A DNA stretch of 64,000 bases from an uncultured Acidobacteriota bacterium. GTDB taxonomy: Bacteria; Acidobacteriota; Thermoanaerobaculia; UBA5066; Gp7-AA6. The stretch spans positions 1,426,837 to 1,490,836 of the forward strand of contig CAVPRN010000005.1 of assembly GCA_963707935.1 (NCBI GenBank). The letters are read 5' to 3'. This document shows positions 1,046 to 24,910 of this stretch, piece after piece. The notes below the pieces were generated by a model. That model was not told where the DNA came from. It was given only the letters and a program-made list of their open reading frames with translations, and did no database searches. Within the stretch, counting starts at the first letter, position 1. Every line of letters starts with the position of its first letter. Position numbers and translations under genes: made by a program.

Positions 1046-1515
1046 CTCCCCTCTCGGGGAGTCGGCCGCCGCACGGCGGCCTCGAAGCGGCCGGGTTCGC
1101 CCGGCCGCTTCCCTTTTCCTGGGTCACGCCGACGACGACGTTCGCGCCGAGCAGCTCGCTCGCAGTAGCGCGCCAGGTCCTCGTTGGAGAACTCGTCCCA
1201 GCCGCGGCAGGCGCCGTGCCGGACGGTCTGCGCGTCGCAGGCGAGTCCCACCCGGCACCGGACCTGCTCGGCGAGCTGCCAGAGGTTGGCGAGCTCCTCC
1301 ATCTGCGGCCGGGACAGGTGGGTGCTGCGGCCAAGCGCGTTCTTCCAGCGCCGATCGAACTCGGAGTCGGGCCAGCGGCGGAAGCCGCGGCAGAAGATCC
1401 CCTGCTCGGCGGCGATCTGGCACATCGAGTGCTCGTCGTCGGTGAGCCGGCGCAGTGCGTCTCGAAGGCGGTCGATCGCGTCGCGCCTCGACCAGACCGG
1501 CACCTGCCCGCTCAT
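895..1515 (-). CDS. conserved 5-Cys hypothetical protein, paralog of 32872..33276
   Basis: MSGQVPVWSRRDAIDRLRDALRRLTDDEHSMCQIAAEQGIFCRGFRRW...ACDAQTVRHGACRGWDEFSNEDLARYCERA aligns without gaps to the protein at 32872..33276. The ATG at 1515 overlaps the upstream stop (ATGA). The ORF closes only at 895, antisense through the hsp20 3' end and its terminator hairpins, so the true C-terminus is doubtful. Confidence 0.55.
   Translation of the reverse strand: MSGQVPVWSRRDAIDRLRDALRRLTDDEHSMCQIAAEQGIFCRGFRRWPDSEFDRRWKNALGRSTHLSRPQMEELANLWQLAEQVRCRVGLACDAQTVRHGACRGWDEFSNEDLARYCERAARRERRRRRDPGKGKRPGEPGRFEAAVRRPTPREGSYEATFTSMALVRGFSVLGRRIRSTPSLKSAATFVASTSSGTVKVRRNVP
1087..1119 (+). terminator. putative intrinsic terminator of hsp20
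   Basis: GCGGCCGGG-TTCG-CCCGGCCGC stem-loop followed by TTCCCTTTTCC. Two shorter hairpins (1045..1062 and 1064..1081) sit directly after the TAA stop. Confidence 0.5.
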
Positions 1516-2079
1516 GCCGCGGGTTCCGAGGGGCGCGCCGCCGGGCGCAGCGGATCGTCCAGCACGAGGTCGGGGAAACGGGCCCGGAACGACAGGGCGA
1601 CGTGGCAGCTCCAGCAGATCCGGTGGTGCGTCTCGAGAAGAGCGGGGAGCGACTCGGCGGCGATCTCCTCCCACTCCAGGGTCCGGCGGTCCGGCCCCAT
1701 CAGAGCGGGCCTGTGCTCGGTCCATCGGATCTCGCCGATGTCGCGGCCGCAGAGCTCGCAGTGGGCTCCCTCGTACCATCGGGCGAGGCGGCTTGCGGAC
1801 GAGACAGTCCTCGGGAGCTTCGACTTGCGCCAGACACTCCTGCCCGCAGTCGGAGCGCTCGGGCCAGCGAGAGCAGGACTGGAGGCGCGGCTCCGGCGTC
1901 CCCGACGATGTCGGTCGCGGCCGGCGCATGGCGTCGAGCTCGACGGCGACGGGCCTTCCCGTCTCGGGGCACGTCAGAACTCCCTTGCCCCGGTACCTGC
2001 GGTAGGAGCGCAGCCCGATCCAGAGGAGCGGAATCAACGACAGGACGAAGGCCGCCGCGAAGAGAAGAACGATTCGCAT
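1512..2079 (-). pseudogene. membrane-anchored multi-Cys (zinc-ribbon-like) hypothetical protein; frame broken once near 1785-1795
   Basis: The N-terminal frame reads MRIVLLFAAAFVLSLIPLLWIG..VLTCPETGRPVAVELDA..CSRWPERSDCGQECLAQVEAPEDCLVR. It continues in another frame as ARWYEGAHCELCGRDIGEIRWTEHRPALMGPDRRTLEWEEIAAESLPALLETHHRICWSCHVALSF. AAGGAGG precedes the ATG at 2079. The length is 568 nt, which is not a multiple of 3. Confidence 0.6.
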
Positions 2080-2127
2080 GACCGCCTCCTTCACCCGCTA
2101 CTGTAGGGAGGCGGCCGGCCTCCGCCA

Positions 2128-2143
2128 TGATGCAAGCGAATCA
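2128..2143. promoter_or_regulatory. class A palindrome site (TGATGCAAGCGAATCA)
   Basis: Exact TGAT-N8-ATCA and identical to the site at 51430. Its centre is about 56 nt upstream of the ATG at 2079. It generates the spurious 'MMQAN' ORF at 2127..2327. Confidence 0.55.
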
Positions 2144-2167
2144 GTTCGAACGGCTCCGACGCGGTCC

Positions 2168-2819
2168 CTACCAGCCGAGTCCGGCGACCACGAGGCCGAC
2201 CGCGGCGATCACGCTCCCGGCCGCCGCGTCGCCGTACCGGTCGAGCCAGGCGGCGGAGAGGGTCTTCGCGCCGGCGCGCGCGGGGAGCACGAGCAGGACC
2301 ATCGTGCCGATCGTGGCGAGCTCATAGAGAAGCACGATCGCCGCCGTGGGAGCCGCGCCGAGCGGCGCCGCGGCAAAGAGGATCGGGATCACCGCCACGC
2401 ACGGGTCCGCCGAGAAGAGCAGGAAGAGGGTCCAGGCGGTGGTGCGAGGACGAGTCGTGGACGTGGTCGTAACGCGTGTGGGCGTGGCCATGCAGCTTCC
2501 GGCCGGCCGCCCGGCGAAGGCCCCAGATTCCGTACGCGAGGCCGAATCCGACCAGAAGGACGCCGGCCGCCGCCTCCATCCGCGCGCCGAGCGTCTTCAC
2601 CATCTCCAGCCCCAGCCAGAGCCCCGCCAGGCCGAGCAGGGCGGAGACCGTGACGTGCCCGACGCCGCAGGCGAGCGTGATGCGCGCGGTGCGGCCCGCA
2701 GACCATCCGCGCGCTCGAGCCAGCGCCGCGAAGGGGACCCAGTGGTCGGGAGCGAGCGTGTGGAGACTTCCGACCGTGACGGCCGCGACGGCCAGCGCCC
2801 CGAAGAGGCCACCGCTCAT
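2168..2819 (-). pseudogene. nickel/cobalt transporter-like membrane protein (NicO/RcnA- or HupE/UreJ-like); frame broken near 2440
   Basis: MSGGLFGALAVAAVTVGSLHTLAPDHWVPF..., then a His-rich loop HGHAHTRYDHVHD, then a second frame (TAWTLFLLFSADPCVAVIPILFAAAPLG...VVAGLGW). The ATG at 2819 overlaps the hypB stop (ATGA). The length is 652 nt. Confidence 0.55.
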
Positions 2820-3541
2820 GACGCCACCGGGACTCGTTCCATCGCCGCGGCCTCCCGGGAGGGGCGCCGCGCCTCGAGCCAGGCGCACCATCGGGCCAAC
2901 CCCTCTCCGGTCCGCGCGGAGACCGGCAGCAGGGCGGGCTTCGGATTCACGCGCGCGAGCGCGTCGCGGATCGCCTCGACGCGCACGTCGGGCAGATGCG
3001 GCAGCAGGTCGATCTTGGTCAGAAGCACGAGGTCCGCCTTGCGAAACATGACCGGATACTTCAATGGCTTGTCCTCTCCTTCCGTGACGGAGAGGGCGAC
3101 GACGTTGGCCGCCTGGCCGAGATCGTAGATTGCGGGGCAGACCAGGTTGCCGACATTCTCGATGAAGAGGTAGTCGAGGTCCTGCCACGGAAAGTCGTGC
3201 AGAGCGCGGTGGACGAGCTCCGCGTCCAGGTGACAGGCGGAGCCGGTCGTGATCGGCACCGACGGAATTCCCGCCGCCTCGAGCCGCTCGGCGTCCCGGG
3301 TGGTCTCGAGATCCCCCGCCAGAGCCCCCAGGCGCGCGCCTCGGGGCAGGCGGCGCGCGGTCGCCTCCAGGATCGCGGTCTTACCCGCGCCCGGCGAGCC
3401 CATCAGGTTGACGGCGACGACGCTCCACTTCTCGAAGTGCTCCCGGTTATGCGCCGCCGTGCGATCGTTGCCCGCCAGGATCCGGTCGTGCACGTCGATC
3501 GGAACCAGCTCCGGGTCTCCGCAGCCACAGGTGCCACACAT
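2816..3541 (-). CDS. hypB: hydrogenase nickel incorporation GTPase HypB
   Basis: 241 aa. N-terminal MCGTCGCG metal motif, P-loop GSPGAGKT, ENVGNLVCP and LTKIDL. The start overlaps the hypA stop (TGATG). Confidence 0.93.
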   Translation of the reverse strand: MCGTCGCGDPELVPIDVHDRILAGNDRTAAHNREHFEKWSVVAVNLMGSPGAGKTAILEATARRLPRGARLGALAGDLETTRDAERLEAAGIPSVPITTGSACHLDAELVHRALHDFPWQDLDYLFIENVGNLVCPAIYDLGQAANVVALSVTEGEDKPLKYPVMFRKADLVLLTKIDLLPHLPDVRVEAIRDALARVNPKPALLPVSARTGEGLARWCAWLEARRPSREAAAMERVPVAS

Positions 3542-3882
3542 CACGCCACCTCCATTTCGACTCGCTCCAGAACGATCTCGTCTCCCGCGGAAAGCCGCGC
3601 CCTCCCGCCGCAGCGCGGGCACTCGAGGATGGCCCCCCGGGGGATCGACTGGCGGCACTCGGCGCAGTCCCAGCGCGCCGCGACCGGCAGGATCGTCAGC
3701 TTCGCTCCGGCGCAAATCGTCCGCTCCCGAAAAGTCTCGTAGGCCGTCGCGAGCAGGTCGGGCTCCACTCCCGAGAGCTCGCCGATCGAAACGAGGACGC
3801 CGTGAACCGCCCTCGCCTGGCGCTCGCGCGCCAGTTCCTCGATCCTCTCGAGGAGCGCGCCGACGATCGAGTACTCGTGCAT
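3541..3882 (-). CDS. hypA: hydrogenase maturation nickel metallochaperone HypA
   Basis: 113 aa. MHEYSIV N-terminus and Zn motif CAECRQ...CPRCGG. Confidence 0.92.
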   Translation of the reverse strand: MHEYSIVGALLERIEELARERQARAVHGVLVSIGELSGVEPDLLATAYETFRERTICAGAKLTILPVAARWDCAECRQSIPRGAILECPRCGGRARLSAGDEIVLERVEMEVA

Positions 3883-3887
3883 CCGCC

Positions 3888-4719
3888 TCACCTCTCCCCG
3901 AAGCGCGCGGGCCGGCGCTCGAAGAAGCCCGCGAGCCCTTCGGCGAAGTCGGATCGGTCGGCGATTCGGGCGAGCTCCTCGAGCTCCCGGTCGAGATGCC
4001 AGTCGAGGCGGTCGACACCGGCCGCCTGATGGACGAGCCGCTTGGCGACCCCGTAGGCCTCCGTGGGACCCTCCGCCAGCTGCCGGGCGACGCCGAGCAC
4101 GTCCTCGCGAAAGGTCTCTTGCGGAAAGACCTCGTTGATCAGGCCGATCTCGAGCGCCTTCGAGGCGTCGAGACGGGGATTTCGAAGCACGAGCTCGAGC
4201 GCCCGGCGCAGTCCGAGCAGGCGCGGCAGGAAGAAGGTCGAGCTCTCGGCTCCGGTCAGCCCCGTCTTGCCGTAGGCCCATTCGAAGCTCGCCCGCGGCG
4301 ACGCGTAGACCAGATCGCAGGCCATGGCGATCCCGAAGCCTCCGGCCGCGGCCATCCCGTCCACGGCGGCGAGAAAGGGCTTGGGCGCCCGCTTGATCTC
4401 GGAGATCGTCGAATGGATGTACTCGAGGATCTGCCGGAAGACCTCGCCGTAGCCTCCCGGCGCGTCGCGGTGGGCCTGCAGGTAGGAGAGCTCGGTTCCC
4501 TCGCCCCCGGCGCGGATGTACTTCAAGTCGGCGCCGCTGCAGAAAACGCCCCCGGCTCCGGCGAGCACGACCGCAGCGCACCTCGGGATCGCGCGCGCAT
4601 TGGAGCCCCGCCTTCCGGAAGTCGCGCGCCGTCTCGACGTCGAGAGCGTTGTACCGCTCGCGCCGGTCGATCGTGATCGTCGCGACTCCGCCCTCGCGTT
4701 CGAGGCGGATGTGGCTCAC
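3888..4719 (-). pseudogene. enoyl-CoA hydratase/isomerase (crotonase) fold protein, candidate HypX C-terminal module; frame broken near 4570
   Basis: VSHIRLEREGGVATITIDRRERYNALDVETARDFRKAGLQCARDPEVRC | VVLAGAGGVFCSGADLKYI...AAVDGMAAAGGFGIAMACDLVYA...FEWAYGKTGL. The GTG at 4719 overlaps the upstream stop (GTGA). The length is 832 nt. Confidence 0.7.
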
Positions 4720-5427
4720 GAAGCGGCCTCCGAAACCCGTTCGAGGGCCGGCGCGCCGGCGATTTGGGCGATCGCGTCGGTGAGCAGCGGGCCCCAGGCC
4801 GTCGCGAGCATCCACTCCTGGTGCGCGTAGGCGTAGGCGTTCAGAGCGTGCTCCGCTCCCGCCGCCGAGAGCTCCACGGCGAGCGGCGCAACCGGATAGG
4901 GCCGCGAGCGCCGGAGGATCGGTCCCGCGTCGAGCTCGTCGGTGACCCGGTGCGAAGTCGCGCGGGTCTCTGGCTCCCCGGCGCGAATCGCGTCGCGCAC
5001 CGCGCGAAGACCCGGATAGAGCGGCCGCCCGTCCGGCCCGCGCCGCGAGAGGTCGCTCCCGTGGACGTTGACGAGGCGTCCGCGCGTAGGCCTCGAGGAG
5101 CGGCTCGGTGGCGATGTAAAGATAACTTGACATCAGCAGGAGGTCCGGCCGCAACGGCGCGAGCAGGCGCACCGTGCGGCGGTCGAAGGCGCGGCGGACC
5201 GCGAGGTCGGCGAGCCCCGCATGCTGCCAGGCGTAGAAGCGGCGGATGAGATTGGGAACGACCGGCACACCCGCCGCGTCCAGCCGCGGATCGAAGAATC
5301 CCTCTTCGGTCGAGAGCACGCCGACGAGCTCGAAGGAGCCGCCGTGCCCGTCGAGCAGCTCCGCGAGGCCCGGCGCCCGCCGCGACGTCAGAAGGGCGAC
5401 CCGCAGGGGGGCGCGTGCGTTCAGCAT
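4716..5427 (-). pseudogene. formyltransferase-like protein (PurN/Fmt fold), candidate HypX N-terminal module; frame broken near 5075-5085
   Basis: MLNARAPLRVALLTSRRAPGLAELL...DLLLMSSYLYIATEPLLEAY | LVNVHGSDL...TSHRVTDELDAGPIL. The N/H/D formyltransferase signature (VNVHGS ... DAGPIL) is present. The ATG at 5427 overlaps the hypE stop. The length is 712 nt. Confidence 0.65.
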
Positions 5428-6467
5428 ATGCGCGGAAGCGGCTCGCCCTCGGGCTCGGCGAGCAGACGCCGGCCGAAGCCGGTGTCCAGAATGACGTTGC
5501 CCGGCCTCTCGGCGAGACAGGTCCCCACGATCGCGGCCTCGCGCCCCTGCGGGTGGGAGCGCAGCGCCTCGAGCACGCTCTCGGCGGCCTCCGGCCGCAC
5601 GCCGAGCACGGCCTTCCCTTCGTTGGCGACGTGGATCGGATCGATGCCGGTCAGCTCCGCCGCCGCCCGCACCGCCTCGGTCACGGGGATGGCGGACTCT
5701 TCCAGCAGGATTCCGACGCCGCTCTTGCCCGCCATCTCGTGGAGCGCCGAGGAGAGGCCGCCGCGCGTCGGGTCCTTCATGGCGACGACGCCTCCGTCCC
5801 GGGCGCCGAGCGCCGCGCGGACCAGGCCGTTGATCGGAGCGACGTCGGAGGCGAGGTCCCCCTCGAGCTCGAGCCCGTGCCGCGCCGAGAGGATCGCGAA
5901 GCCGTGGTCCCCGATCGTGCCGGTGACCAGAATGCGGTCGCCCGGTCGCAAGTCCCGCGTCGGGGACGACGCGGTCGGTCAGGGCGACACCGGCCGTGTT
6001 CAGGACGATCCCGTCGATCTCGCCGCGCCCCATGACCTTCGTGTCGCCCGTGACGACCGGAGCGCCGGCCTCGCGGCAGGCGAGGCGCATCGACTCCGGA
6101 GAATCCGCTCGAGGTCGGGCCTGCGGGAAATCCGTCCTCGAGGATCACGGCGCAGGTCAGGCCCAGGACCTCGGTCGCGCCCATCATCGCGAGGTCGTTG
6201 ACCGTGCCCGAGACCGCGAGCCGCCCGATGTCTCCGCCCGGGAAGAAGATCGGGTGCACGACGTGGGAGTCGGTCGTCAGGACCAGCCATCGGTCGCCGA
6301 GACGCATCGCGGCGCCGTCGTCCATCGCGGCGAGGCCGATCCCGTCCGGAGGCGCCGGCGCGGCGAAGCCCCGGAGGAAGACCTCCTCGATCAGTCGGCG
6401 CATCGCCCGACCGCCGGCGCCCTGCTTCAGGGAGACGCGTTCGACCAGCGGTTCCTTCGCGAGGCAT
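5421..6467 (-). pseudogene. hypE: hydrogenase maturation carbamoyl dehydratase HypE; at least 3 frame breaks (about 6125, 6095 and 5950); start uncertain
   Basis: Segments lie in three frames: VSLKQGAGGRAMRRLIEEVFL..TDSHVVHPIFFPGGDIGRLAVSGTVNDLAMMGA..AVILEDGFP | PDLERILRS | MRLACREAGAPVVTGDTKVMGRGEIDGIVLNTAGVA | GDRILVTGTIGDHG...EGEPLPRIC. The last segment carries the C-terminal PRIC motif. Confidence 0.88.
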
Positions 6468-6469
6468 GC

Positions 6470-7618
6470 TCACGCGAGCGCCTCCAGATCCGGATGCCCG
6501 CCGTACTGGTGCCAGATCTTGCAGGTTCCCTCGGAGGACACCATGCAGGCGCCGACCGGGTTGTCCGGGACGCATTCCTTCCCGAAGAGCGTGCAGTCGG
6601 AGGGAGACGCGATGCCCGACATGATGTCGCCGCAGATGCAGCTCGCGACGAGCGTGGGCGGCCCGTAGTCCCACAGCCCCGCCAGGTCGATCGGGAAGCG
6701 CCGGCGCGCGTCGAGGTGCGCCCATTCCTCGCGCAGGCGCAGGTTGCCGTTGGGCACGTGAGCGATGCCGCGCCAGCGTCCTCCGACCGGCCGGAAGACG
6801 CTCCAGAGCTCCTCCTGCGCCCGACGGTTCCCCTCGCGTGTGACGCAGCGCGGGAACATGTTGACGACGCGCGGCGTGCGGTCGCGCACGAGCTCGAGCA
6901 GCCTCGCGAGTCCCGCCAGGATGTCGAGCGGCTCGAATCCGGCGACGACGACCGGGATCCCGTGGCGCGCGACGAACGGCTCGAAGATCCCCCAGCCCGT
7001 GATCGTGGCGGCGTGGCCGGCGGCGAGGAACCCCTCGACGCGCGTCTCGGGCATCTCCGCCACGATCTCCATGACCGGCGGGATGTACTTGTGCGCCGAG
7101 AGGACCGAGAAATTCTCCGGGACGGGGCCGCGCACGACGGCGGCGGTCGCGACGGCCGTCGTCTCGAAGCCGGTCGCGAAGAAGACGACGGGCTTCTCCG
7201 TCGCCGCGGGCGATCTCCACGGCCTGGGCGGCGCTGTAGACGACGCGCACGTCGGCCCCCTCGGCCTGCGCGTCGGCGAGCGACTGCACGGTGCCGCGCA
7301 CCTTCACCATGTCGCCGTAGGTCGCGATCGTCACTCCCTGGCGGGCGAGGACGACGCCTTCGTCGACTTCCGGCATGTCGGTGATGCAGACCGGGCAGCC
7401 CGGGGCCCATGATCACGTTCAGGTCCTTCGGAAACGACGCGCGCAGCCCGAACTTGGCGATCGCCTGCTCGTGGCTGCCGCAGACGTGCATCACCGAGAC
7501 CGGCGATCGGCCGATTTCTCCGGTCACCCGGGCGATCGTGCTCGGCGAGCCCGCGCGCCAGCCCCGGATCCCGGAAGCGCAGCTTCCCCAGAGAATCCCG
7601 CGAGAGAATCGGGCTCAC
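6470..7618 (-). pseudogene. hypD: hydrogenase maturation factor HypD; 3 frame breaks (about 7530, 7395 and 7190)
   Basis: Segments: MSPILSRDSLGKLRFRD | SPVSVMHVCGSHEQAIAKFGL..NVIMGPG | MPEVDEGVVLARQGVTIATYGDMVKVRG..VVYSAAQAVEIA | SVLSAHKYIPPVMEIV..GFEPLDIL..ACMVSSEGTCKIW. The GTG start overlaps a TGA (GTGA). Confidence 0.9.
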
Positions 7619-7908
7619 GACGGCTCCCTCCCGCGCCGTCGCCTTCGATCTCTCCCCGGACGTCCGCGGCCATCAAGTCGTCCTTCGACGCTTCGGCGAG
7701 CAGGGTCTCGTAGAGCGCCAGCGTCTCGCCGATCTCCTCCGGCGGGATCCGCCGGATCGCGAAGCCGACGTGGTTCAGGATGTAGTCGCCCGCCTCGACG
7801 GGCTGGTCCACCACGTCCAGGCGCACGCGGCGGGACACGCCGAAGAAGTCGACCGTCGCGATACAGTCCCTCGACCGACACGACGCGGCCCGGCACGCCG
7901 AGGCACAT
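7615..7908 (-). pseudogene. hypC: hydrogenase assembly chaperone HypC; frame break near 7865; 3' end ambiguous (stop at 7615 or 7524)
   Basis: MCLGVPGRVVSVEG | IATVDFFGVSRRVRLDVVDQPVEAGDYILNHVGFAIRRIPPEEIGETLALYETLL. The ATG at 7908 overlaps the hypF stop. Confidence 0.8.
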
Positions 7909-10196
7909 CAGAGACCTCCTCGCCTGCGCGCGAGTGCCGCCGCAACGAGCGCCTGACCGATCGCGAGGCCCCCGTCGCCGGGAGGCACTTCGCCGTGGAG
8001 GAGAACCCGGAAATCGGGAGACAGCTCGGAGGAGACCCGCTCGGCGAGCAGGGCGTTCTGAAAGCATCCGCCCGTCAGGACCACCGGGAGCGCTCCCTGC
8101 CGCTCGGCGCAGAGGCGGACGAGCCGCGCGGTCGCGTCGGCGACGGTGTTGTGAAAGCGGCCGGAGATCGCCGCGGGCGAGGCTCCGGACACGAACGCTT
8201 CGACGGCGGCGCGCAGAGCGGGGCGCAGGTCGAGCGTCGCGATGTCGCCGGTCTCGACTTCGAAGGGGAAGCGGCCCGCCTCCGTCTCGTCCGCCGCCGC
8301 GTTCCACTCGAGCGCGACCTGCCCCTCGTATCGCGACTCGGGCCGGTTCAGAAAGAGCGCCCCGAAAGCGTCGAAGTAGCGGCCGACCCCGCGGGCGAGA
8401 GGCGCCCCGACGCCGCTCGGAACGAGCCTTCGGACCGCCGCGACGCGGTCCGGGGCGATCGCGCGGAAGAGGGGAAAGGCCTCCAGAGGCGGAGCGCCTT
8501 CGTATGCGTCGTCGAGCAGCGAAAGCGCGATGCGCCAGACCTCCCGGATCGCCGTCTCTCCCCCCGGCAGCACGATCGGGCGCCACGTCGCGAGCCGCTC
8601 GAAGCCACTCCGGGCGCGCGAGCAGGATCTCGCCTCCCCAGGACGTGCCGTCGGTCCCGTAGCCGGTGCCGTCGTAGGCCACACCGAGCACCGGGCTCTC
8701 CAGGCCGTGCTCGGCCATCGCGCTCGCGACGTGGGCGTGGTGGTGCTGCACGCCGACAGCGGCGACCCCCGTCCGGCGGCGCGCGTACAGCGTCGAGGCG
8801 TACCGCGGATGGAGGTCGTGCGCCACGATCTCGGGGCGGATCCCGACGAAGCGCTCCAGCCTCGAGACGGCCTCCTCGAACGCCTCGACCGTCTCCAGAC
8901 TCTCGAGGTCCCCGATGTGCGGGCCCGGATAGAGAGCGTCGCCCGCCGCGAGGCAGAAGGTGTTCTTCAGGTGCCCGCCGCAGGCGAGAACCGGTCTCTC
9001 GAAGGGACTCGGCGCGGGGAGGGCGCGCGGCACGTAACCGCGCGATCGGCGAAGCACCGTCGGTCTTCCGGCGATCACGCGAGCGACCGAATCGTCGCAG
9101 GGCGACTCGATCTCCCGGTCGTGCGTCAGGAAGATGTCGGCGATGGCACCGAGCTTCTCGAGCGCCCGCGCGTTGTCGTGCGCGATCGGATCGCCGGCGA
9201 GGTTGCCGGAGGTCATGACCAACGGGCGGTCCGTCTCCGAAAGCAGCAGGTGGTGGAGCGGGGTGTACGGCAGCAGCAGGCCGATCCACGGGTTGCGCGG
9301 GGCGACCGGCTCGGCGATCCCGCCGCCCGTCGCGCCGAAGCGCGAGGACGATGGGGCGCTCGATCGAGGTCAGCAGGCGCTCCTCCTCCGGGGAGAGGCG
9401 AGCGACTCGACGAGCGGCCTCGAGGTCCTTCACCATGACGGCGAAGGGCTTCTCCTCCCGCCTCTTGCGGTCGCGAAGGCGCCGGACCGCGAGATCCGAG
9501 GCGGCATCGCAGGCCAGGTGGAAGCCGCCGAGCCCCTTGACGGCGACGAGGAGTCCGGCTTCCAGGGCGCGCGCCGCCTGCCGGATGGGGTCTTCCCAGC
9601 CGAGGTTCTGGCCGTCCGGTCCGACCGCGGAGAGAACCGGCCCGCAGGCCGGGCAGGCGTTGGGCTGCGCGTGAAAGCGCCGGTCGCCCGGGTCCTCGTA
9701 CTCGCGCCGGCAAGCGGCGCACATCCGGAACGGGGCCATCGTCGTCGCGGCCCGGTCGTACGGCACGTCGCGCGCGATCGTGAAGCGCGGGCCGCAGTTG
9801 GTGCAGTTGGTGAAGGGATAGCGGTAGCGCCGGTCTCGCGGGTCGAAGACCTCGGACAGGCAGTCGGCGCACGTCGGAAGGTCCGGCGGGAATCGAGACC
9901 CGCCGCTCTCCCGTCTCCCGGCTCTCGACGATCACGAATTCGGAGGCGGGCTCCGCCGGTATCGGCGTCCAGTCGAGCTCCCGGATCCGGGCCGCCGGAG
10001 GAGAATCCGCGGCGAGCGAGGCGAGGAAGGCTTCGATCGCCGACGCGTCGCCGAAGGCCTCGATGGTGACGCCGCGGCTGTGGTTGGACACGCGCCCGGC
10101 AAGGCCGCTCTCGCGCGCGAGCCGGTAGATCCAGGGACGGAAGCCGACTCCCTGCACCGTTCCCCGCACCTCGATGCGCCGCCCGGTCCGGGTCAT
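7908..10196 (-). pseudogene. hypF: carbamoyltransferase HypF; 3 frame breaks (about 9895, 9340 and 8615)
   Basis: Acylphosphatase-like domain: RIEVRGTVQGVGFRPWIYRLA. Zn fingers: CAACRREYEDPGDRRFHAQPNACPACGP. YrdC-like domain: LLVAVKGLGGFHLACDA. LVMTSGNLAGDPI follows. C-terminal Kae1-like domain: VGVQHHHAHVAS..VVLTGGCFQN. Confidence 0.9.
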
Positions 10197-10603
10197 TTGC
10201 CTTCCGGAGCCACCGACCGGAGATAGGCGACGAGATCCCAGGACTGCTCTTCGTCGAGCGCTTTCCAGGAAGCCATCGACGTGCCGCTCAGTCCTTCCCG
10301 GATCACGAAGAACATGCGCTGCGGCGAGCTCTTCTCCCGCGCGGTCGGGTCGGTGAAGTCGCGCGGTGGAGTCGAGAGCCCCTCTCGCCGCACGCCCCGG
10401 CCGTCCGCCCGGACTCCATGGCAGAGGGCGCAGTGCTCCAGGAAGAGGCGGTGCCCCCTCTCGCGCGCGCTCGCCGAGGCGAGCCTCTCCACGGGCACGC
10501 GCAGGCTGCGGTAGGGAGGGGGCAGATCCCCCTCGCCCCTACAGCCCGAGAGCCCGAGCGCCATCAGCAACGCGAATGCCGTCCGGACGTCGCGGTTTCT
10601 CAC
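10193..10603 (-). CDS. monoheme c-type cytochrome, probable lipoprotein
   Basis: 136 aa. Signal plus lipobox ALLMALGLSGC and a single CALCH heme motif. Its stop overlaps the hypF ATG (ATGA). Confidence 0.8.
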   Translation of the reverse strand: MRNRDVRTAFALLMALGLSGCRGEGDLPPPYRSLRVPVERLASASARERGHRLFLEHCALCHGVRADGRGVRREGLSTPPRDFTDPTAREKSSPQRMFFVIREGLSGTSMASWKALDEEQSWDLVAYLRSVAPEGK

Positions 10604-11820: not shown

Positions 11821-13524
11821 ACGGCCTGGACGCGCGCGAGCTCGCGCCGCTTCGCGTCCACCACGTGGACCCCGCAGGCCATGCAGGGGTCGAAGGAGTG
11901 CACGGTCCGCAGGATCTCGACCGGCTTCTCCGGGTCGGCCACCGGCGTGCCGAGCAGCGCCTGCTCGTACGGGCCCCGGTTGCCCTTCGCGTCGCGCGGC
12001 CCCGCGTTCCAGGTGCTCGGCACGACGCACTGGTAGTTGGCGATCGTGCCGTCCTTGATGTGGACCCAGTGGCCGAGCGCCCCGCGCGGCGCCTCGTGGA
12101 AGCCGGCCCCGGTCGCGTCCCGGGGCCAGGTGCTCGGCTCCCATTTGGAGTTGTCGTGGATCCGCAGCTCGCGGCGGCCCATGTTCTGGGCGAGCTCCGT
12201 GAGCCAGTCCCCCATCTTCTCCGCCAGGACCTGCGTCTCGATTCCCCGAGCCGCCACGCGGCCGAGCGTCGAGAAGAGCGCCTCGGCTCCGACGCCGAGC
12301 TTCCCGAGAACGGCTCCGACGAGCTCTTTCACCCGCTCGTGCCCGGAGGCGTAGGCGACGAGCATCCGCGAGAGCGGCCCGACTTCCATCGGCAGGCCGT
12401 CGTAGCGCGGGGACTTCAACCAGCTGTACTTGCCCGCCGTGTCCAGCCGCTCGTACGGGGGCTTGGGTCCCGTGTACTTCGGCTTCGTCTCCCCGTCGAA
12501 GGGGTGTAGGGCCTGCGCGTCGCCGCCGGCGTACTCGTACCAGGAGTGCGTCACCTGCTCGGTGATCTTCGTCGGGTCGAAGGGCTCGACCTTCGAGAGA
12601 TCGCGGCCGCGCAGCACGCCCGACGGAAGGAAGAGCTTCGGGTTGACCCGATCCTCCTCGGGGTACTCTCCATAGACGAGATAGTTGCCGACTCCCTGGC
12701 CATAGCCCGCCCAATCCTTGTAGAAGGAGGCGATCGCGAGCAGATCCGGAACGTAGACCTTCTCGACGAAGTCGCGCGCCTTCGCGATCTGCCCCTGCAT
12801 CTCGGCGATCGATCCGGCGTTCAAAGACGCCTGACGGTCGGGATCGATCGGGGTCGCCATGCCGCCCACGAGGAAGCTCTGCAGGTGCGGGTTCTTGCCC
12901 CCGAGCACCGCGTGGATCTTGATGAACTCGCGCTGCCACTCGAGCGCCTCGAGGTAGTGCGCCACCGCGAGCAGGTTCGCCTCGGGCGGCAGCTTGTAGG
13001 CCGGGTGGCCCCAGTAGGCGTTGGCGAAGGGGCCGAGCTGTCCCCGCGTCGACGAATCCCTTGACCCGGTCGCGCACGCCCGCGAAGTACTTCTCCGAGG
13101 AGAGCGGCCAGTCGGAGATCGACTGCGCCAGCGCCGAGGTCTTACCGGGGTCGGCCGACAGGGCGGAGACGATGTCCACCCAGTCGAGGGCGTGCAGATG
13201 GTAGAAGTGGATGACGTGATCCTGCACGCACTGCGAGGCGATGATCAGGTTGCGCAGCAGGCGCGCGTTCGGAGGGGGCGAGGCGCCGATCGCGTTCTCG
13301 ACCGCGCGGATGGACGCGATCGCGTGGACCGTCGTGCAGACGCCGCAGATGCGCTGCGTGAAGGCCCAGGCGTCGCGCGGATCTCTTCCCTTCAGGATCA
13401 GCTCGATGCCGCGGAACATCGTCGAGGAGGACCATGCGTCCTGGACCTTCCCCCCGTCGACCTCCGCCTCGATGCGCAGGTGACCTTCGATCCGGGTCAC
13501 GGGATCGACGACGACGTGCGTCAT
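11817..13524 (-). pseudogene. hupL: [NiFe]-hydrogenase large subunit (group 1, HupL/HyaB-like); one frame break near 13041
   Basis: N-terminal RIEGHLRIE and RICGVCTTVH, and C-terminal HSFDPCMACGVH, provide the Ni-Fe ligands. The junction reads VKGFVDAG | QLGPFANAYWGHPAYKLPPEANLLAVAHYLEALEW and looks like a single extra base. The length is 1708 nt. Confidence 0.92.
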
Positions 13525-14636
13525 GGCCGTTCTCCTTTCTCCGGCTCATCGCTCTTCGCGTCGTCCCCCTCCTTCGAGGCGAGGCGCTTCGCCATGGAAA
13601 TCAGGCCGTGCGCCGCGAAGGCAGCGCCCACGCCGACGGTGGCCCAGAGGCCCACCCGGTCGACGGGAGTGGCGACGTTGAAGCCGGGAATCCCCGAGAG
13701 GTGCCGGTAGAAGGGGGTCATCTTGTCCCAGAAGTCCGGCTCCGCGCACCCGATGCACGGGTGGCCGCAGCCGATCGGCCAGTTGGTTCCGCCGTTCCAC
13801 CGGACGTTGGGACAGTTCTGGAAGGTGACCGGACCCTTGCACCCCATCTTGTAGAGGCAGTAGCCGGTCCGGTGCCCTTCGTCGCCCCAGGCCTCCACGT
13901 ACTGTCCCGCGTCGTAGTGCGCGCGGCGCTCGCAGTTGTCGTGGATCGACTTGCCGTAGGCGAAGAGCGGCCGGCGGTAGTGGTCGAGCGGCGGCCAGCT
14001 CCCGAATGTCAGGAAGTAGACGATCAGAGCCGTCAGGTTCTCGACGTTGGCCGGGCAGGCCGAGAGGTTGATGAGGTTCTTGACGCCGGGCACGGCGTCC
14101 GCGACGCCGAGAGCGCCGGTGGGATTGGGGGACGCGGCGGGGATGCCGCCGAAGGCCGCGCAGGTCCCGATCGCGATCGTCGCCATCGCGTTGCCGCAGA
14201 CCTCGCGTGCGATCTCGAGCGCCGATCGTCCGCCGACCGTGCAGTAGGCGCCGTTCTCGCCCGTGGGGATCGATCCCTCGACGACGGCGAGGTACTTGCC
14301 CGAGCGCTCCCGGACCGTTTTCGCGAGGGCCTCCTCGGCCTGGTGCCCGGCGGCCGCCATGATCGTCTCGTGGTAGTCGACCGACAGCGTGTCGAGGATC
14401 ACCTCGGCCGCGGTCGGACGCGTCGCCCGCAGGAACGACTCGGTGTTTCCCGCGCAGTCCTGGAACTCCAGCCAGACGAGGACCGGTTTCTCGGTCGTCG
14501 CGATCGCCCTCGCGATCTTGACGCCGAAGCTGCGCGGCAACGCGAGGGCCGAGGCCATCACGCTGCAGAAGCCGACGAACTCGCGCCGCGACACGCCGCG
14601 ATCCTCGAGCTCGTCCAGGAAAGAGCGCTCGATCAT
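13521..14636 (-). CDS. hupS: [NiFe]-hydrogenase small subunit with Tat signal (group 1)
   Basis: 371 aa. Tat motif SRREFVGF. FeS ligand motifs GTCAAFGG, LSACP, HDNCERR, GYCLYKMGCKGP and CPNVRWN..GCGHPCIGC. A C-terminal TM anchor is present. The first motif reads DCAGNTES rather than the usual C-x-G-C. Confidence 0.93.
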   Translation of the reverse strand: MIERSFLDELEDRGVSRREFVGFCSVMASALALPRSFGVKIARAIATTEKPVLVWLEFQDCAGNTESFLRATRPTAAEVILDTLSVDYHETIMAAAGHQAEEALAKTVRERSGKYLAVVEGSIPTGENGAYCTVGGRSALEIAREVCGNAMATIAIGTCAAFGGIPAASPNPTGALGVADAVPGVKNLINLSACPANVENLTALIVYFLTFGSWPPLDHYRRPLFAYGKSIHDNCERRAHYDAGQYVEAWGDEGHRTGYCLYKMGCKGPVTFQNCPNVRWNGGTNWPIGCGHPCIGCAEPDFWDKMTPFYRHLSGIPGFNVATPVDRVGLWATVGVGAAFAAHGLISMAKRLASKEGDDAKSDEPEKGERP

Positions 14637-21085: not shown

Positions 21086-23044
21086 ATGCCGATCGCCGTC
21101 CGCCTCCCCGATCTCTCGCACTGGAAGGCGCAGGTGGCGTGCCAGGCGGGCTGCCCCGTCCGGACCGACGCGGGTCGCTACGTGCAGCTCATCGCCGAGG
21201 GGCGCGACGAGGAAGCGTACCTGGTGGCCCGGGCGCCCAACCCGTTCGCCTCGGTCTGCGGGCGGGTCTGCGCCGCTCCATGCGAGGACGCGTGCCGCCG
21301 CGGGGCGATCGACGCGCCGATCGCGATCCGCGCGCTCAAGCGCTTCGTGACCGAGAGGTACGGCGTCGAATCGGTCCACCCCGACGCGCAGAACCGGCTG
21401 CGCGAGAGCCTGATCGCCGAAGGGAACCGATACCCGGGCCACCTCCCCGTCCACCCGATCGGCTCGACCCGGCCCCCGGCGGGCCCCGCGCGAAGGAAGG
21501 TCGCGGTCATCGGGGCGGGGCCCGCCGGTCTCTCTGCCGCGCACGATCTGGCGCTGCTCGGCTACTCCGTGACGGTCTTCGAGGCCGCCGAAGAGCCGGG
21601 GGGAATGATGCGCTTCGGGATCCCCGAGTACCGGCTCCCCCGCACGCTGATCCGCGCCGAGATCGACAAGATCGTCGCGCTCGGCGTCGAGCTCCGGCTC
21701 CGGTCCGGTCTCTCCCCCCGCTTGGGGCTCTCGGAGCTCCGGGCGCAGGGCTTCGAGGCGATCTTCCTCTCGATCGGCGTCACCCGGGGGCGCGATCTTC
21801 AGGTGCCGGGCGTCGAGCTCGACGGAGTCGTCAAGGCGGTCGATTACCTGCTGAACATCAACCGGGGATACCGGATGGATCTCGGGCAGCGGGTCGTCGT
21901 CATCGGCGGCGGGTTCGTCGCGTTCGACGCGGCGCGGACGGCGCTGCGGTCCGGTCGCAAGGATCTGGAGGTGGAGCTCGAGCGCCTCGACGAGGCGGAA
22001 GACCACCGGATGAAGGAGGCTCTCGACTCTGCCCGCGCGGCCCTGCGCGGGGGCGCGACCCGGGTGACGATCGTTTCACTCGAGAGCTTCGATGAGATGC
22101 CGGTCCTCAAGACGACGCAAGGCCACGAGGAGTTCGAGGAAGCGAAAAAAGAAGGGGTCGTCTTCCAGACGCGCCGCGGGCCGAAGCGCTTCCTGGGCGA
22201 CGGCAAGCTCGAAGGGATCGAGCTCCGGCGAGTTCTGTCGGTTTTCGACGAGAAAGGCCGCTTCGCGCCGACCTACGAGGACGCAGACATCACGCGTCTC
22301 GAGTGCGACGCCTGCATCCTCGCGATCGGCCAGCAGCCCGACCTCTCGTTCCTCAAGCCCGAGGATGGCGTCGCACTGACTCCCGGCGGAACGATCCGGG
22401 TGGACGCCGAGACGCTCGCGACCTCGGCGGCCGGAGTCTTCGCCGGCGGCGACGTCGCCTTCGGCCCGCGCAATCTGATCGAGGCCGTTGCCAACGGGAA
22501 GCGGGCCGCGCGGTCGATCCACGAGCACCTCTCCCGAGAGGCCGCGGCCACGCGCGCGACGATCGAGATCGAGACCCTGCCGACGGCGGCTTACCGCCAG
22601 ATCGCCGGGTTCGAGATCCTGGACCGGGTGGTGCCGCCGACCCTCGAGCTCTCGCGGCGCACCGGCATCGCCGAGGTCGAAACGGGCTACGACGAGGTCG
22701 AGGCCCGTCTCCAGGCCGCGCGCTGCCTCGTCTGCCACGTGCAGACGATCTACGACCCCGAAGCCTGCGTGCTCTGCAACCGCTGCGTGGACGTCTGTCC
22801 CGAGTTCTGCCTCGCGCTCGTCCCATTCGAAGCGCTCGACCTGCCCGAAGCGGAGCGCCGGGCGCTCGCCGAGAGGGCCGAGGCGGACGGGCTGCCGCTC
22901 TCCGCAATGGTCAAGGACGACGAGCGCTGCATCCGGTGCGGGCTGTGCGCCATCCGCTGCCCGACCGACGCGATGACGATGGAGCGGTTCTCGATCACGG
23001 AGCGGTTCTTCGCTCCCGCCGGAGAAGGAGGGGTTGCCGCATGA
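21086..23044 (+). CDS. GltD-family NAD(P)H-dependent flavoprotein with an N-terminal FeS domain and a C-terminal 2x[4Fe-4S] ferredoxin domain
   Basis: 652 aa. N-terminal domain: CQAGCPVRTD..NPFASVCGRVCAAPCEDACRR. Two dinucleotide folds: VAVIGAGPAGLSAAHDLA and VVVIGGGFVAFDAA. AGGDV. C-terminal domain: CLVCH..CVLCNRCVDVCP..CIRCGLCAIRCP. Confidence 0.85.
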   Translation: MPIAVRLPDLSHWKAQVACQAGCPVRTDAGRYVQLIAEGRDEEAYLVARAPNPFASVCGRVCAAPCEDACRRGAIDAPIAIRALKRFVTERYGVESVHPDAQNRLRESLIAEGNRYPGHLPVHPIGSTRPPAGPARRKVAVIGAGPAGLSAAHDLALLGYSVTVFEAAEEPGGMMRFGIPEYRLPRTLIRAEIDKIVALGVELRLRSGLSPRLGLSELRAQGFEAIFLSIGVTRGRDLQVPGVELDGVVKAVDYLLNINRGYRMDLGQRVVVIGGGFVAFDAARTALRSGRKDLEVELERLDEAEDHRMKEALDSARAALRGGATRVTIVSLESFDEMPVLKTTQGHEEFEEAKKEGVVFQTRRGPKRFLGDGKLEGIELRRVLSVFDEKGRFAPTYEDADITRLECDACILAIGQQPDLSFLKPEDGVALTPGGTIRVDAETLATSAAGVFAGGDVAFGPRNLIEAVANGKRAARSIHEHLSREAAATRATIEIETLPTAAYRQIAGFEILDRVVPPTLELSRRTGIAEVETGYDEVEARLQAARCLVCHVQTIYDPEACVLCNRCVDVCPEFCLALVPFEALDLPEAERRALAERAEADGLPLSAMVKDDERCIRCGLCAIRCPTDAMTMERFSITERFFAPAGEGGVAA

Positions 23045-23547
23045 AGGACGAGAAGGGGCGCCGCGAGTTTCTCTGGAAGCTCGGCATCGGGAGCGGGATC
23101 GCGGCGCTCGGCGCGCAGACGGTCGCCTCGATGCGCTCGCTCGTGCCCAACGTCTCCTACGACGCGCCCACGACGGTTCGACTCGGGATGCCGCAGGACT
23201 TCCCGGACGGCCTGAAGTTCCTGCCGGACCAGAGGCTCTTCGTGTTCCGCGACGGGAATACGTTCCACGCCATCTCGGCCGCGTGCACCCACCTCGGCTG
23301 CACGGTGCGCGCCGAAGCGCTCCCGCAGGTCGAGACGAAGGACATCGCGGGACAGCGGCTGCGCCTCACGCACCGTTTCCTCTGCCCCTGCCACGGTTCC
23401 CGATACTCGGGCGACGGCTCGAACGTCTCCGGCCCGGCCCCGCGGCCGCTCGCCTGGTACCACCTCTCGGTCTCGCCCGACGACGGACAGCTCGTCGTCG
23501 ATCTTGCGCGGCCGGTCGGCAGCGATTTCCGACTGACGGTTGCCTGA
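23041..23547 (+). CDS. Rieske [2Fe-2S] subunit of a Rieske/cytochrome b complex, with Tat signal
   Basis: 168 aa. GRREFLWKLG. CTHLGC ... CPCHGS. The ATG overlaps the upstream stop (ATGA). Confidence 0.9.
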   Translation: MKDEKGRREFLWKLGIGSGIAALGAQTVASMRSLVPNVSYDAPTTVRLGMPQDFPDGLKFLPDQRLFVFRDGNTFHAISAACTHLGCTVRAEALPQVETKDIAGQRLRLTHRFLCPCHGSRYSGDGSNVSGPAPRPLAWYHLSVSPDDGQLVVDLARPVGSDFRLTVA

Positions 23548-23557
23548 AGGAGTCCTC

Positions 23558-24910
23558 ATGAGCGCCGAACAGAAGACGAGAACCGCCACCCCGGTCCGGT
23601 CCGCCCCCGGAGTGCGCCCGAAGCGGCTCTGGACCTTCCGGCCCGCGTCCGACCGGGAGGCCGGCGACGCCGTCGTCTCGAATTTCCTCCTGCACTGGTT
23701 CCCCGCGAAGTGCTATCGGGCTTCGCTCGAGTGGAACTACTCTTTCTGGCTCGGAACGGTCTCGGCCGCGCTGCTCCTGCTCCTCATCGTCTCGGGTCTG
23801 CCGCTCCTCTTCCTCTACATCCCATCCGTCGAACGCGCCTACGCGTCGGTCAAGGACATCGAGTTCGTCGTCACGTTCGGCTCCTGGATTCGCGCGGTCC
23901 ACCGCATCTCCGCGCACCTGATGGTCGCGGCGGTGTTCCTCCATCTCGTCCGTGTCTTCCTGACCGGCGCCTACAAGAACGGCGCCGGGAGAAACCAGAA
24001 GCGGCAGTGGAACTGGGTGCTGGGAGTCGCGATGCTCCTCGCGACCCTGTTCCTCTCGTTCACGGGCTACCTGCTTCCGTGGGACCAGCTCGCCTACTGG
24101 GCCGTGACCGTCGGGACCAACATCGCCTCCTCGGTTCCGTGGGTCGGTCCGACGATCCGGGAGCTGCTGATCGGCGGGCGGACGATCGAACAGCCCACTC
24201 TGATCCGTTTCTACGTGCTCCACGTCTTCTTCCTGCCGATGATCGTGGGAGCCCTCTTCGCGTACCACATGTGGCGCGTCCGCAAGGACGGCGGGCTCGC
24301 GAGCGCCGACCGGGAGGCCGCCCGGGCGGAAAAGAAGAGTGCGGCGCCTTCGAAGACGAAAACCTACACGCTCCTCGGGATCGCCCGGGGCACGGCGCCG
24401 CAGGTCCGCGCCTCCGCGCTCGAGACGGCCGACGCGATGGTCAACTCCGTCTCGGACCTGACACGCCGCGCGGCGATCGTCGTCCTCGGCACGATCGCGG
24501 TCGTCGGCATCCTCTCGGTTTTCGTTCGCTCGCCCCTCGAAGAGCCGGCCAACCCGATCATCACGCCGAACCCGGCCAAGGCGCCCTGGTACTTCCTCTG
24601 GCTCCAGGAGATCGTCACCGACACGACCATCCGAATCGGATCCTTGACGATCAACGGCGCCTTCCTGGGGGGCGTGCTGCTGCCGGCGATCCTGCTCCTT
24701 CTGCTCACGGCCTGGCCATGGCTCGACAGGAGCCCTGCCGCCGCGGCCGGCCTTTGGTTTGCCGAGAGCCGCCGCCGCCAGAATCTGGTCTTCCTCCTCT
24801 TCGTCGCGGCCGTTCTCGTGCTGACCGTCGTCGGCACGTTCCTGCGCGGGCCTTACTGGCACTTCTACTGGCCGTGGCAGCCCTGGCCCGAGCTGCCCGC
24901 GAGGATCTGA
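23558..24910 (+). CDS. cytochrome b (b6-like N-terminal part fused to a subunit-IV-like part)
   Basis: AAGGAG lies 6 nt upstream of the ATG at 23558. His pairs: AVHRISAHLMVAAVFLHL and VLHVFFLPMIVGALFAYH. The Qo-region motif reads KAPWYFLW instead of PEWY. Confidence 0.9.
   Translation: MSAEQKTRTATPVRSAPGVRPKRLWTFRPASDREAGDAVVSNFLLHWFPAKCYRASLEWNYSFWLGTVSAALLLLLIVSGLPLLFLYIPSVERAYASVKDIEFVVTFGSWIRAVHRISAHLMVAAVFLHLVRVFLTGAYKNGAGRNQKRQWNWVLGVAMLLATLFLSFTGYLLPWDQLAYWAVTVGTNIASSVPWVGPTIRELLIGGRTIEQPTLIRFYVLHVFFLPMIVGALFAYHMWRVRKDGGLASADREAARAEKKSAAPSKTKTYTLLGIARGTAPQVRASALETADAMVNSVSDLTRRAAIVVLGTIAVVGILSVFVRSPLEEPANPIITPNPAKAPWYFLWLQEIVTDTTIRIGSLTINGAFLGGVLLPAILLLLLTAWPWLDRSPAAAAGLWFAESRRRQNLVFLLFVAAVLVLTVVGTFLRGPYWHFYWPWQPWPELPARI

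Follow-up and report, generated by a model that had tools for sequence, protein, structure and literature searches.

Can the carbon monoxide (CO) ligand of a [NiFe] hydrogenase be made by two separate proteins? The question is raised by the hydrogenase maturation (hyp) cluster of an uncultured Acidobacteriota bacterium, which lies in a 64,000-nucleotide stretch of contig CAVPRN010000005.1 (assembly GCA_963707935.1, positions 1,426,837 to 1,490,836). In this stretch, hereafter called the window, a formyltransferase gene (FT) and a crotonase-fold gene (ECH) stand side by side between hypE and hypA. HypX (HoxX) is an N10-formyl-tetrahydrofolate (formyl-THF)-dependent formyl-coenzyme A (formyl-CoA) decarbonylase that makes the CO ligand and is required for maturation in the presence of air. 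To our knowledge, no other enzyme is known to make this ligand of [NiFe] hydrogenases, and all descriptions of HypX are of a single protein in which two domains are fused. HypX is also presented as a two-domain protein in a 2025 review of [NiFe]-cofactor biosynthesis, and neither that review nor full-text literature searches, the coverage of which is incomplete, yielded any mention of a HypX that is split or encoded by two genes, an absence that is no proof of novelty. As judged from sequence comparison, the pair consists of a PurN-class formyltransferase and a PaaG-like crotonase bearing the decarbonylase residues of HypX, and it keeps to the place that hypX has among the hyp genes. The pair most likely makes the CO ligand of the hydrogenase, a role known only for fused HypX.

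The [NiFe]-hydrogenase and hyp cluster occupies 2.8-14.6 kb of the window (G+C content, 70%) on the minus strand, in the order small subunit, large subunit, cytochrome b, HycI protease, c-type cytochrome, hypF, hypC, hypD, hypE, FT, ECH, hypA and hypB (Table 1). The reading frame of FT starts with ATG at 5427 and ends with TGA at 4718-4716, and that of ECH extends from GTG at 4719-4717 to TGA at 3890-3888, the corrected products being 236 and 276 amino acids (aa) long. Pfam assigns Formyl_trans_N to FT (51.8 bits; cut-off 26.1) and ECH_1 to ECH (157.5 bits; cut-off 27), and the FT motifs LVNVHGSD and ELDAGPIL are found at about 5075-5052 and 4937-4914. An earlier reading of the letters alone (the sequence-only reading) had described the two adjacent genes between hypE and hypA, their GTGA overlap and the VNVHGS and DAGPIL motifs, and all of these are confirmed by the sequence and by Pfam. 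The overlap of the FT stop codon with the ECH start codon indicates translational coupling of the two genes. FT also overlaps hypE by 7 nucleotides (nt), and the identical overlap is present at L001 (hypE 6961-8007, FT 8001-8714), an intact orthologous locus from an Acidobacteriota metagenome-assembled genome (MAG) that served as the reference for indel placement and frame tracking. In Cupriavidus necator pHG1, hypX directly follows hypE, in the same slot as the FT-ECH pair.

The arrangement was compared among 34 species-representative genomes carrying FT, mostly of Acidobacteriota. FT lies inside the hyp cluster in all 34 loci, and the order hypE-FT-ECH is kept in 32 of them. The FT stop and the ECH start, which are in different frames, overlap by 4 nt (ATGA or GTGA) in 24 of 32 loci, the two genes of the remainder being separated by 2 to 29 nt or overlapping by 32 nt; the junction overlap is also present in short-read (Illumina-type) assemblies. 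FT homologues from independent data sets are always stand-alone proteins of 233-276 aa, and a family member on a short contig (P0241) is flanked by hypE (ending in PRIC) and by ECH. The ECH orthologues (275-292 aa) show 75-90% identity within the family, which points to strong constraint on ECH. When 1.84 billion representative proteins were searched with a profile, no FT-ECH fusion was present among the best 150 matches. Because of the stand-alone homologues, the linkage to hyp genes at every one of these loci, the frequent overlaps and the lack of fusions among relatives, the split is judged to be genuine. The sequence-only reading had left it possible that the split itself is an indel artefact; this concern is dispelled by the conservation of the FT stop and the ECH start across loci, and only the breaks inside the two genes are regarded as artefacts.

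Two loci, L039 and L013, had at first sight the form of same-frame FT-ECH fusions, and they were rejected when all three frames were read, being long-read contigs with a frameshift, in whose true frame a normal stop is present. The 150 representative matches comprise 101 clusters at E<1e-30, a number that is not a count of hyp-linked members because at least one match, P0295 at 158 bits, is a PurN-like protein of a pur cluster; regular-expression motifs were too variable to delimit the FT family among these matches. The uncultured soil MAGs that carry the module belong to Thermoanaerobaculia, Vicinamibacteria, unclassified Acidobacteriota and, in one case, Gemmatimonadaceae. The contigs of L038 and L032, which also have the module, are labelled as a Haloarculaceae archaeon and an uncultured Bifidobacterium, probably through mis-binning; in L038, ECH has the reverse orientation and is placed between hypE and FT.

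The closest solved relatives of FT by sequence are PurN proteins (E=4e-11), and its AlphaFold2 model, with a predicted local distance difference test score (pLDDT) of 92, is nearest to the solved folds of PurN, followed by PurU, ArnA and Fmt. Against the PurN equivalog model TIGR00639, FT scores 51.1 bits, far under the cut-off of 150.1, and for this reason it is judged not to be PurN itself. Asn120, His122 and Asp166 of FT align with Asn106, His108 and Asp144 of Escherichia coli PurN (NVH...D with NIH...D) in alignments that span FT residues 76-176 only. This folate triad is invariant, together with Asp125, in 27 family members. The family is further marked by an invariant SRRxPG loop near the N-terminus (S15, R17, P19 and G20), which presumably replaces the loop by which PurN binds glycinamide ribonucleotide, by an insertion of eight residues after HGSDL and by a conserved C-terminal helix, AHQEWML..AWGP.

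The HypX proteins of C. necator (pHG1) and Aquifex aeolicus (PDB 6J0P) were taken as references for the comparison with HypX. In hhalign, His122 and Asp166 of FT are paired with His74 and Asp109 of HypX (A. aeolicus numbering), and the invariant Asp125 of FT is at His+3, whereas the supporting Asp80 of HypX is at His+6. C. necator HypX matches Formyl_trans_N, Formyl_trans_C and ECH_1 of Pfam, and Formyl_trans_C is not matched in FT. FT, a member of the PurN class, is judged not to be orthologous to the N-domain of HypX, which belongs to the Fmt/ArnA class, and the FT-ECH pair is not regarded as a canonical HypX that underwent fission. From this it would follow that the module was assembled independently or diverged very anciently, rather than arising by recent fission.

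A more distant relative of FT, P0295, is encoded in a purine-synthesis cluster (L044, 6001-7861), where its neighbour is a convergent PurM-like AIRS gene on the other strand, near purL/purQ and glycine-cleavage genes. The location of this relative among purine genes suggests a PurN-like paralogue as the origin of FT. HypE is a protein of the PurM superfamily, and the adjacency of hypE and FT loosely resembles the pairing of an AIRS gene with an FT relative at L044. Longer FT-related proteins among the best 150 matches are fusions to 5-formyl-THF cyclo-ligase, to an ADP-forming acyl-CoA-synthetase-like module or to GARS. Fusions of an FT-related domain are seen in P0319, P0348 and P0362, including fusion to the cyclo-ligase, and in P0380 (952 aa), in which the partner is the acyl-CoA-synthetase-like module (CoA_binding, Succ_CoA_lig and ATP-grasp_5); this CoA-ligase fusion hints at a broader tie between the FT clade and CoA chemistry.

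In ECH, the oxyanion-hole and CoA-binding motifs of the crotonase fold are kept (GGVFCSGADL and DGxAAAGG), and a family-specific insertion of about 35 residues is present at positions of about 67-110. ECH scores under every NCBIfam equivalog cut-off, the best values being 169 against 300 for NF046063 and 147 against 345 for PaaG. Its similarity to the C-domain of HypX is detected by BLASTP (1e-12) and by hhalign with the A. aeolicus C-domain (98% probability, E=5e-14). Tyr149 and Glu158 of ECH align with Tyr416 and Glu426 of A. aeolicus HypX and with Tyr439 and Glu449 of C. necator HypX in BLASTP, MAFFT and hhalign alike, the aligned segments being FEWAYGKTG-LTGAES in ECH and NPHYKNIGNLYGSEF in HypX. 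These HypX residues adjoin the CoA thiol, and their mutation results in a HypX-minus phenotype (PMC6802093). All 30 members of the ECH family compared, and nine more distant loci as well, have Tyr149 and Glu158, and the residues at these positions elsewhere are Glu/Gly in E. coli PaaF, Phe/Cys in PaaG and Phe/Ala in the three closest solved relatives. Tyr149 stands at the position of the canonical hydratase Glu (Glu in E. coli PaaF), and Ala157 at that of the catalytic Asp of PaaG.

Together, FT and ECH would rather probably constitute a two-subunit functional analogue of HypX, converting formyl-THF via formyl-CoA to CO. In the proposed mechanism, FT would bind formyl-THF and hand the formyl group to the thiol of CoA, and ECH would bind the resulting formyl-CoA and decarbonylate it to CO and CoA with the Tyr/Glu pair equivalent to Tyr416/Glu426 of HypX, the CO being delivered to the iron held on HypC-HypD. 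A 1:1 complex of FT and ECH is likely, because translational coupling links the two separate genes with each other and with hypE; the release of CO, the formation of this complex and any link to oxygen, such as the O2-tolerant maturation proposed in the sequence-only reading, are points that we infer. The two-subunit HypX of the sequence-only reading is upheld with regard to its role, which the Tyr/Glu pair of ECH and the slot after hypE make plausible, and given up with regard to its identity, as FT is of the PurN type and the pair is not HypX cut in two. More tentatively, and with less than even confidence, it may be proposed that soil Acidobacteriota and at least one member of Gemmatimonadaceae independently built a route from formyl-THF via formyl-CoA to CO out of a PurN paralogue and a PaaG-like crotonase, the Tyr/Glu site being either convergent or anciently shared, or else that the pair represents an ancestral, unfused HypX.

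Several points weigh against a HypX-like role of the pair. That CoA accepts the formyl group from FT is a matter of pure inference. Alignment of both products to HypX, as advised in the sequence-only reading, gave the match of Tyr149 and Glu158 in ECH and no significant similarity for FT (BLASTP E=0.28; hhalign probability 2%); no HypX match for FT was obtained in PDB at E<1, and HypX is absent from the best 50 Foldseek matches of the FT model. ECH is globally closest to PaaG-type crotonases (about 140-156 bits, as compared with about 45-58 bits for the C-domain of HypX). With the HypX C-domain as the starting point, the ECH family is matched at 44-58 bits and the best PDB crotonase at 46 bits; because the former values hardly differ from this generic crotonase match, no orthology of ECH and the HypX C-domain is claimed. 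The structure model of ECH is of low confidence (pLDDT 66 overall and below 50 at residues 150-165 of the catalytic loop), and Foldseek with this model retrieved generic crotonases only and did not separate HypX-like from PaaG-like proteins. All 34 loci come from MAGs, with no cultured carrier among them. In favour of the role, neither the window nor any of the locus flanks yielded a canonical hypX, ECH being the only HypX similarity there, whole genomes not having been searched for hypX or for housekeeping purN.

Of the other explanations, the one that survives best, although unlikely, is that the pair serves hydrogenase maturation by a different chemistry. FT might be a formyl-THF hydrolase, or might formylate HypC/HypD or a phosphopantetheine carrier, and ECH might be a thioesterase or another hydrolase, the CO coming from elsewhere. 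Such a role could be accommodated by the N-terminal loop of FT, which is unlike those of both PurN and HypX, by the presence of PurU-type deformylases among the close fold neighbours of FT, and by the fusion of related FT domains to CoA-ligase-like and folate-recycling domains. However, the Tyr/Glu pair of ECH specifically matches the decarbonylase site of HypX, and the HypX pathway is the simplest reading of a formyltransferase paired with a CoA-binding fold at the position of hypX.

It is improbable, to a further degree, that a PurN paralogue and a PaaG-like or fatty-acid crotonase, unrelated in function, are merely co-transcribed with the hyp genes without any part in cofactor synthesis. 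The names of these genes in public data would agree with this, FT being called PurN or 'formyltransferase family protein' and ECH 2-(1,2-epoxy-1,2-dihydrophenyl)acetyl-CoA isomerase (PaaG-type), and so would their best solved relatives, which are PurN and PaaG-type crotonases, and the occurrence of P0295 in a purine-synthesis cluster. Both proteins, nevertheless, are far under the equivalog cut-offs, and the pair is tied to the hyp operon without exception among the loci compared, across Acidobacteriota classes and in a Gemmatimonadaceae MAG, with overlapping stop and start codons. In addition, the changes from crotonase Glu to Tyr and from PaaG Asp to Ala produce the pattern of HypX in a highly conserved protein. 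NCBIfam has no HypX-specific model, and C. necator HypX matches Fmt and crotonase models only. The sequence-only reading had held that grouping with PurN/Fmt and with fatty-acid crotonases would speak against HypX; by overall similarity the two proteins do fall there, whereas the active-site residues and the synteny argue otherwise.

A still smaller probability is given to the decay of the whole hyp/hydrogenase cluster into pseudogenes in the source organism, in which case the frame breaks would be biological. There is exactly one break inside FT and one inside ECH, as the sequence-only reading had stated, and a DNA alignment with L001 (90% column identity) assigns each of them to one superfluous G, located at about 5082 (FT) and about 4572 (ECH), with the same GTGA junction in both loci. 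Tracking of frames by tblastn with the L001 proteins gave 11 frame changes over about 10.6 kb of the cluster, between 2800 and 13500 (ECH 1, FT 1, hypC 1, hypD 3, hypE 1, hypF 3 and large subunit 1). The density of breaks looks higher in the cluster (about one per kb) than in a 6.9-kb control stretch read in three frames (about 1-3 breaks), which would favour decay; these two procedures took the place of GC3-phase segmentation, which was too coarse for counting frameshifts. On the other hand, all the defects found are frame changes, those of FT and ECH, which were read base by base, are insertions of one nucleotide each, and neither of these two genes has a stop codon within its corrected frame. 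The products of the cluster are still 72-95% identical to intact orthologues, similar fragmentation is seen in sister long-read MAGs, and a P-type ATPase gene outside the cluster, at about 40 kb of the window (about 40400), is also frame-broken. The internal breaks of FT and ECH are read as assembly indels because of the single-base insertions, the stop-free corrected frames, the retained identity and the fragmentation of the sister MAGs. The ECH fragment of the window itself is on record as P0138, from a 2.86-Mb contig.

As for an ordinary fused hypX that only appears to be split through an indel, which the indel-rich assembly with a spurious base in each gene might suggest, its probability is close to nil, being refuted by the comparison of loci, with the conserved stop/start overlap reaching into short-read assemblies, by the size of FT-family proteins in independent data sets, by the long-read frameshifts that account for L039 and L013, and by the PurN type of FT, which is not that of the HypX N-domain.

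Table 1. Coordinates of the FT-ECH pair, its adjoining genes and the nosZ region in the window
Feature	Position	Strand	Basis or remark
FT, stand-alone PurN-type formyltransferase gene	4716..5427	-	ORF (open reading frame) translation; Pfam; orthologues; AlphaFold2 model
ECH, stand-alone crotonase-fold gene	3888..4719	-	ORF translation; Pfam; orthologues; hhalign
GTGA overlap, FT stop TGA / ECH start GTG	4716..4719	-	Plus strand reads TCAC
ATGCTGA overlap, FT start ATG (5427-5425) / hypE stop TGA (5423-5421)	5421..5427	-	Sequence
hypE, directly upstream of FT	5421..6473	-	C-terminal ...PRIC motif; one frameshift in assembly
hypA, directly downstream of ECH	3541..3882	-	Starts 5 nt past ECH stop
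FT active-site motif N-V-H-G-S-D	5052..5069	-	Asn120 5069-5067; His122 5063-5061; Asp125 5054-5052
FT third triad residue Asp166	4931-4929	-	Alignment to E. coli PurN Asp144
ECH active-site loop FEWAYGKTGLTGAES	4245..4274	-	Tyr149 4274-4272; Glu158 4247-4245
Flavin-dependent pyridine nucleotide-disulphide oxidoreductase gene with Fe-S (ferredoxin-type) domains, upstream of nosZ	21086-23044	+	
Cytochrome b gene upstream of nosZ	23540-24910	+	
c-type cytochrome gene upstream of nosZ	24912-26156	+	
nosZ	26173-28044	+	nos_propeller + cupredoxin

Some features of the neighbouring genes may be added. The large subunit of the hydrogenase is closest to that of the membrane-bound enzyme of Allochromatium vinosum (PDB 3myr). 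The small subunit (13521-14636, minus strand, in the window; 4167-5303, minus strand, in L003) has EFQDCAGNTESF in place of the ECTGCSES of standard group 1 enzymes, i.e., the second Cys of the CxxC motif for the proximal cluster is replaced by Asn, which is preceded by Asp. This change is not taken for an assembly error because it is identical in a short-read Vicinamibacteria MAG, and the motif differs from the six-Cys pattern of the O2-tolerant enzymes of group 1d. Between the HycI protease gene and hypF lies a gene for a small c-type cytochrome (domains Cytochrom_C / Cytochrome_CBB3; 10193-10603, minus strand), which keeps this position in most related loci. Downstream of hypB there are three conserved genes for proteins of 216, 188 and 128 aa (about 1100-2800, minus strand, in the window; 10605-12303 in L001), for which no Pfam match was found; the first product looks membrane-embedded and has an HTLAPDHW motif. 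These three genes are followed by a divergent Hsp20 gene, and the arrangement recurs in L001, L002, L040 and L041. Farther away on the plus strand, the N2O reductase gene to which the sequence-only reading had referred is present as nosZ, preceded by cytochrome and oxidoreductase genes.

If FT and ECH do function as proposed, the CO-ligand pathway would be modular and would exist in a conserved two-gene version employing a different class of formyltransferase. The pair would then provide a natural stand-alone formyl-THF:CoA formyltransferase and a natural stand-alone formyl-CoA decarbonylase, with which the formyl-CoA intermediate and its channelling could be tested directly. Dedicated synthesis of the CO ligand would also extend to abundant uncultured soil Acidobacteriota, in which H2 is oxidised by a group 1 enzyme linked to cytochrome. 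On the same premise, the names PurN and PaaG-type isomerase in public data hide a function in hydrogenase maturation and would mislead metabolic reconstructions.

Among the known systems, the N-terminal hydrolase domain of FDH, ArnA and Fmt share with FT the formyltransferase fold, the His/Asp pair and the proposed chemistry of the first step, whereas these proteins, like HypX, contain a Formyl_trans_C subdomain that is not present in FT. The formyl acceptor of FDH is a phosphopantetheine thiol. PurN is the best match of FT in both sequence and fold and has the same Asn/His/Asp triad and folate-binding core, but FT is under the TIGR00639 cut-off, carries the SRRxPG loop, the extra insertion and the C-terminal helix, and is encoded in the hyp operon and not among pur genes. 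The PaaG-type/oxepin-CoA crotonases are likewise the best global match of ECH in sequence and fold and share its oxyanion-hole and CoA motifs, although ECH differs from them in having Tyr149 and Ala157-Glu158 at the catalytic Asp/Glu positions, in the insertion of about 35 residues and in its hyp context. HypX differs from the FT-ECH pair in being one polypeptide in place of two genes and two polypeptides, and in having an N-domain of the Fmt/ArnA/FDH class with Formyl_trans_C, whereas FT is of the PurN class without it; FT keeps Asn120, which HypX lacks, and has its own eight-residue insertion and C-terminal helix, and ECH is a full-length crotonase of ordinary size, nearer to PaaG types than to HypX. 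What HypX and the pair have in common is the combination of the Formyl_trans_N and ECH_1 families, the position in the operon right after hypE, the His and Asp of the folate site, which are kept in FT, and the Tyr/Glu pair of the decarbonylase site, which is present in ECH.

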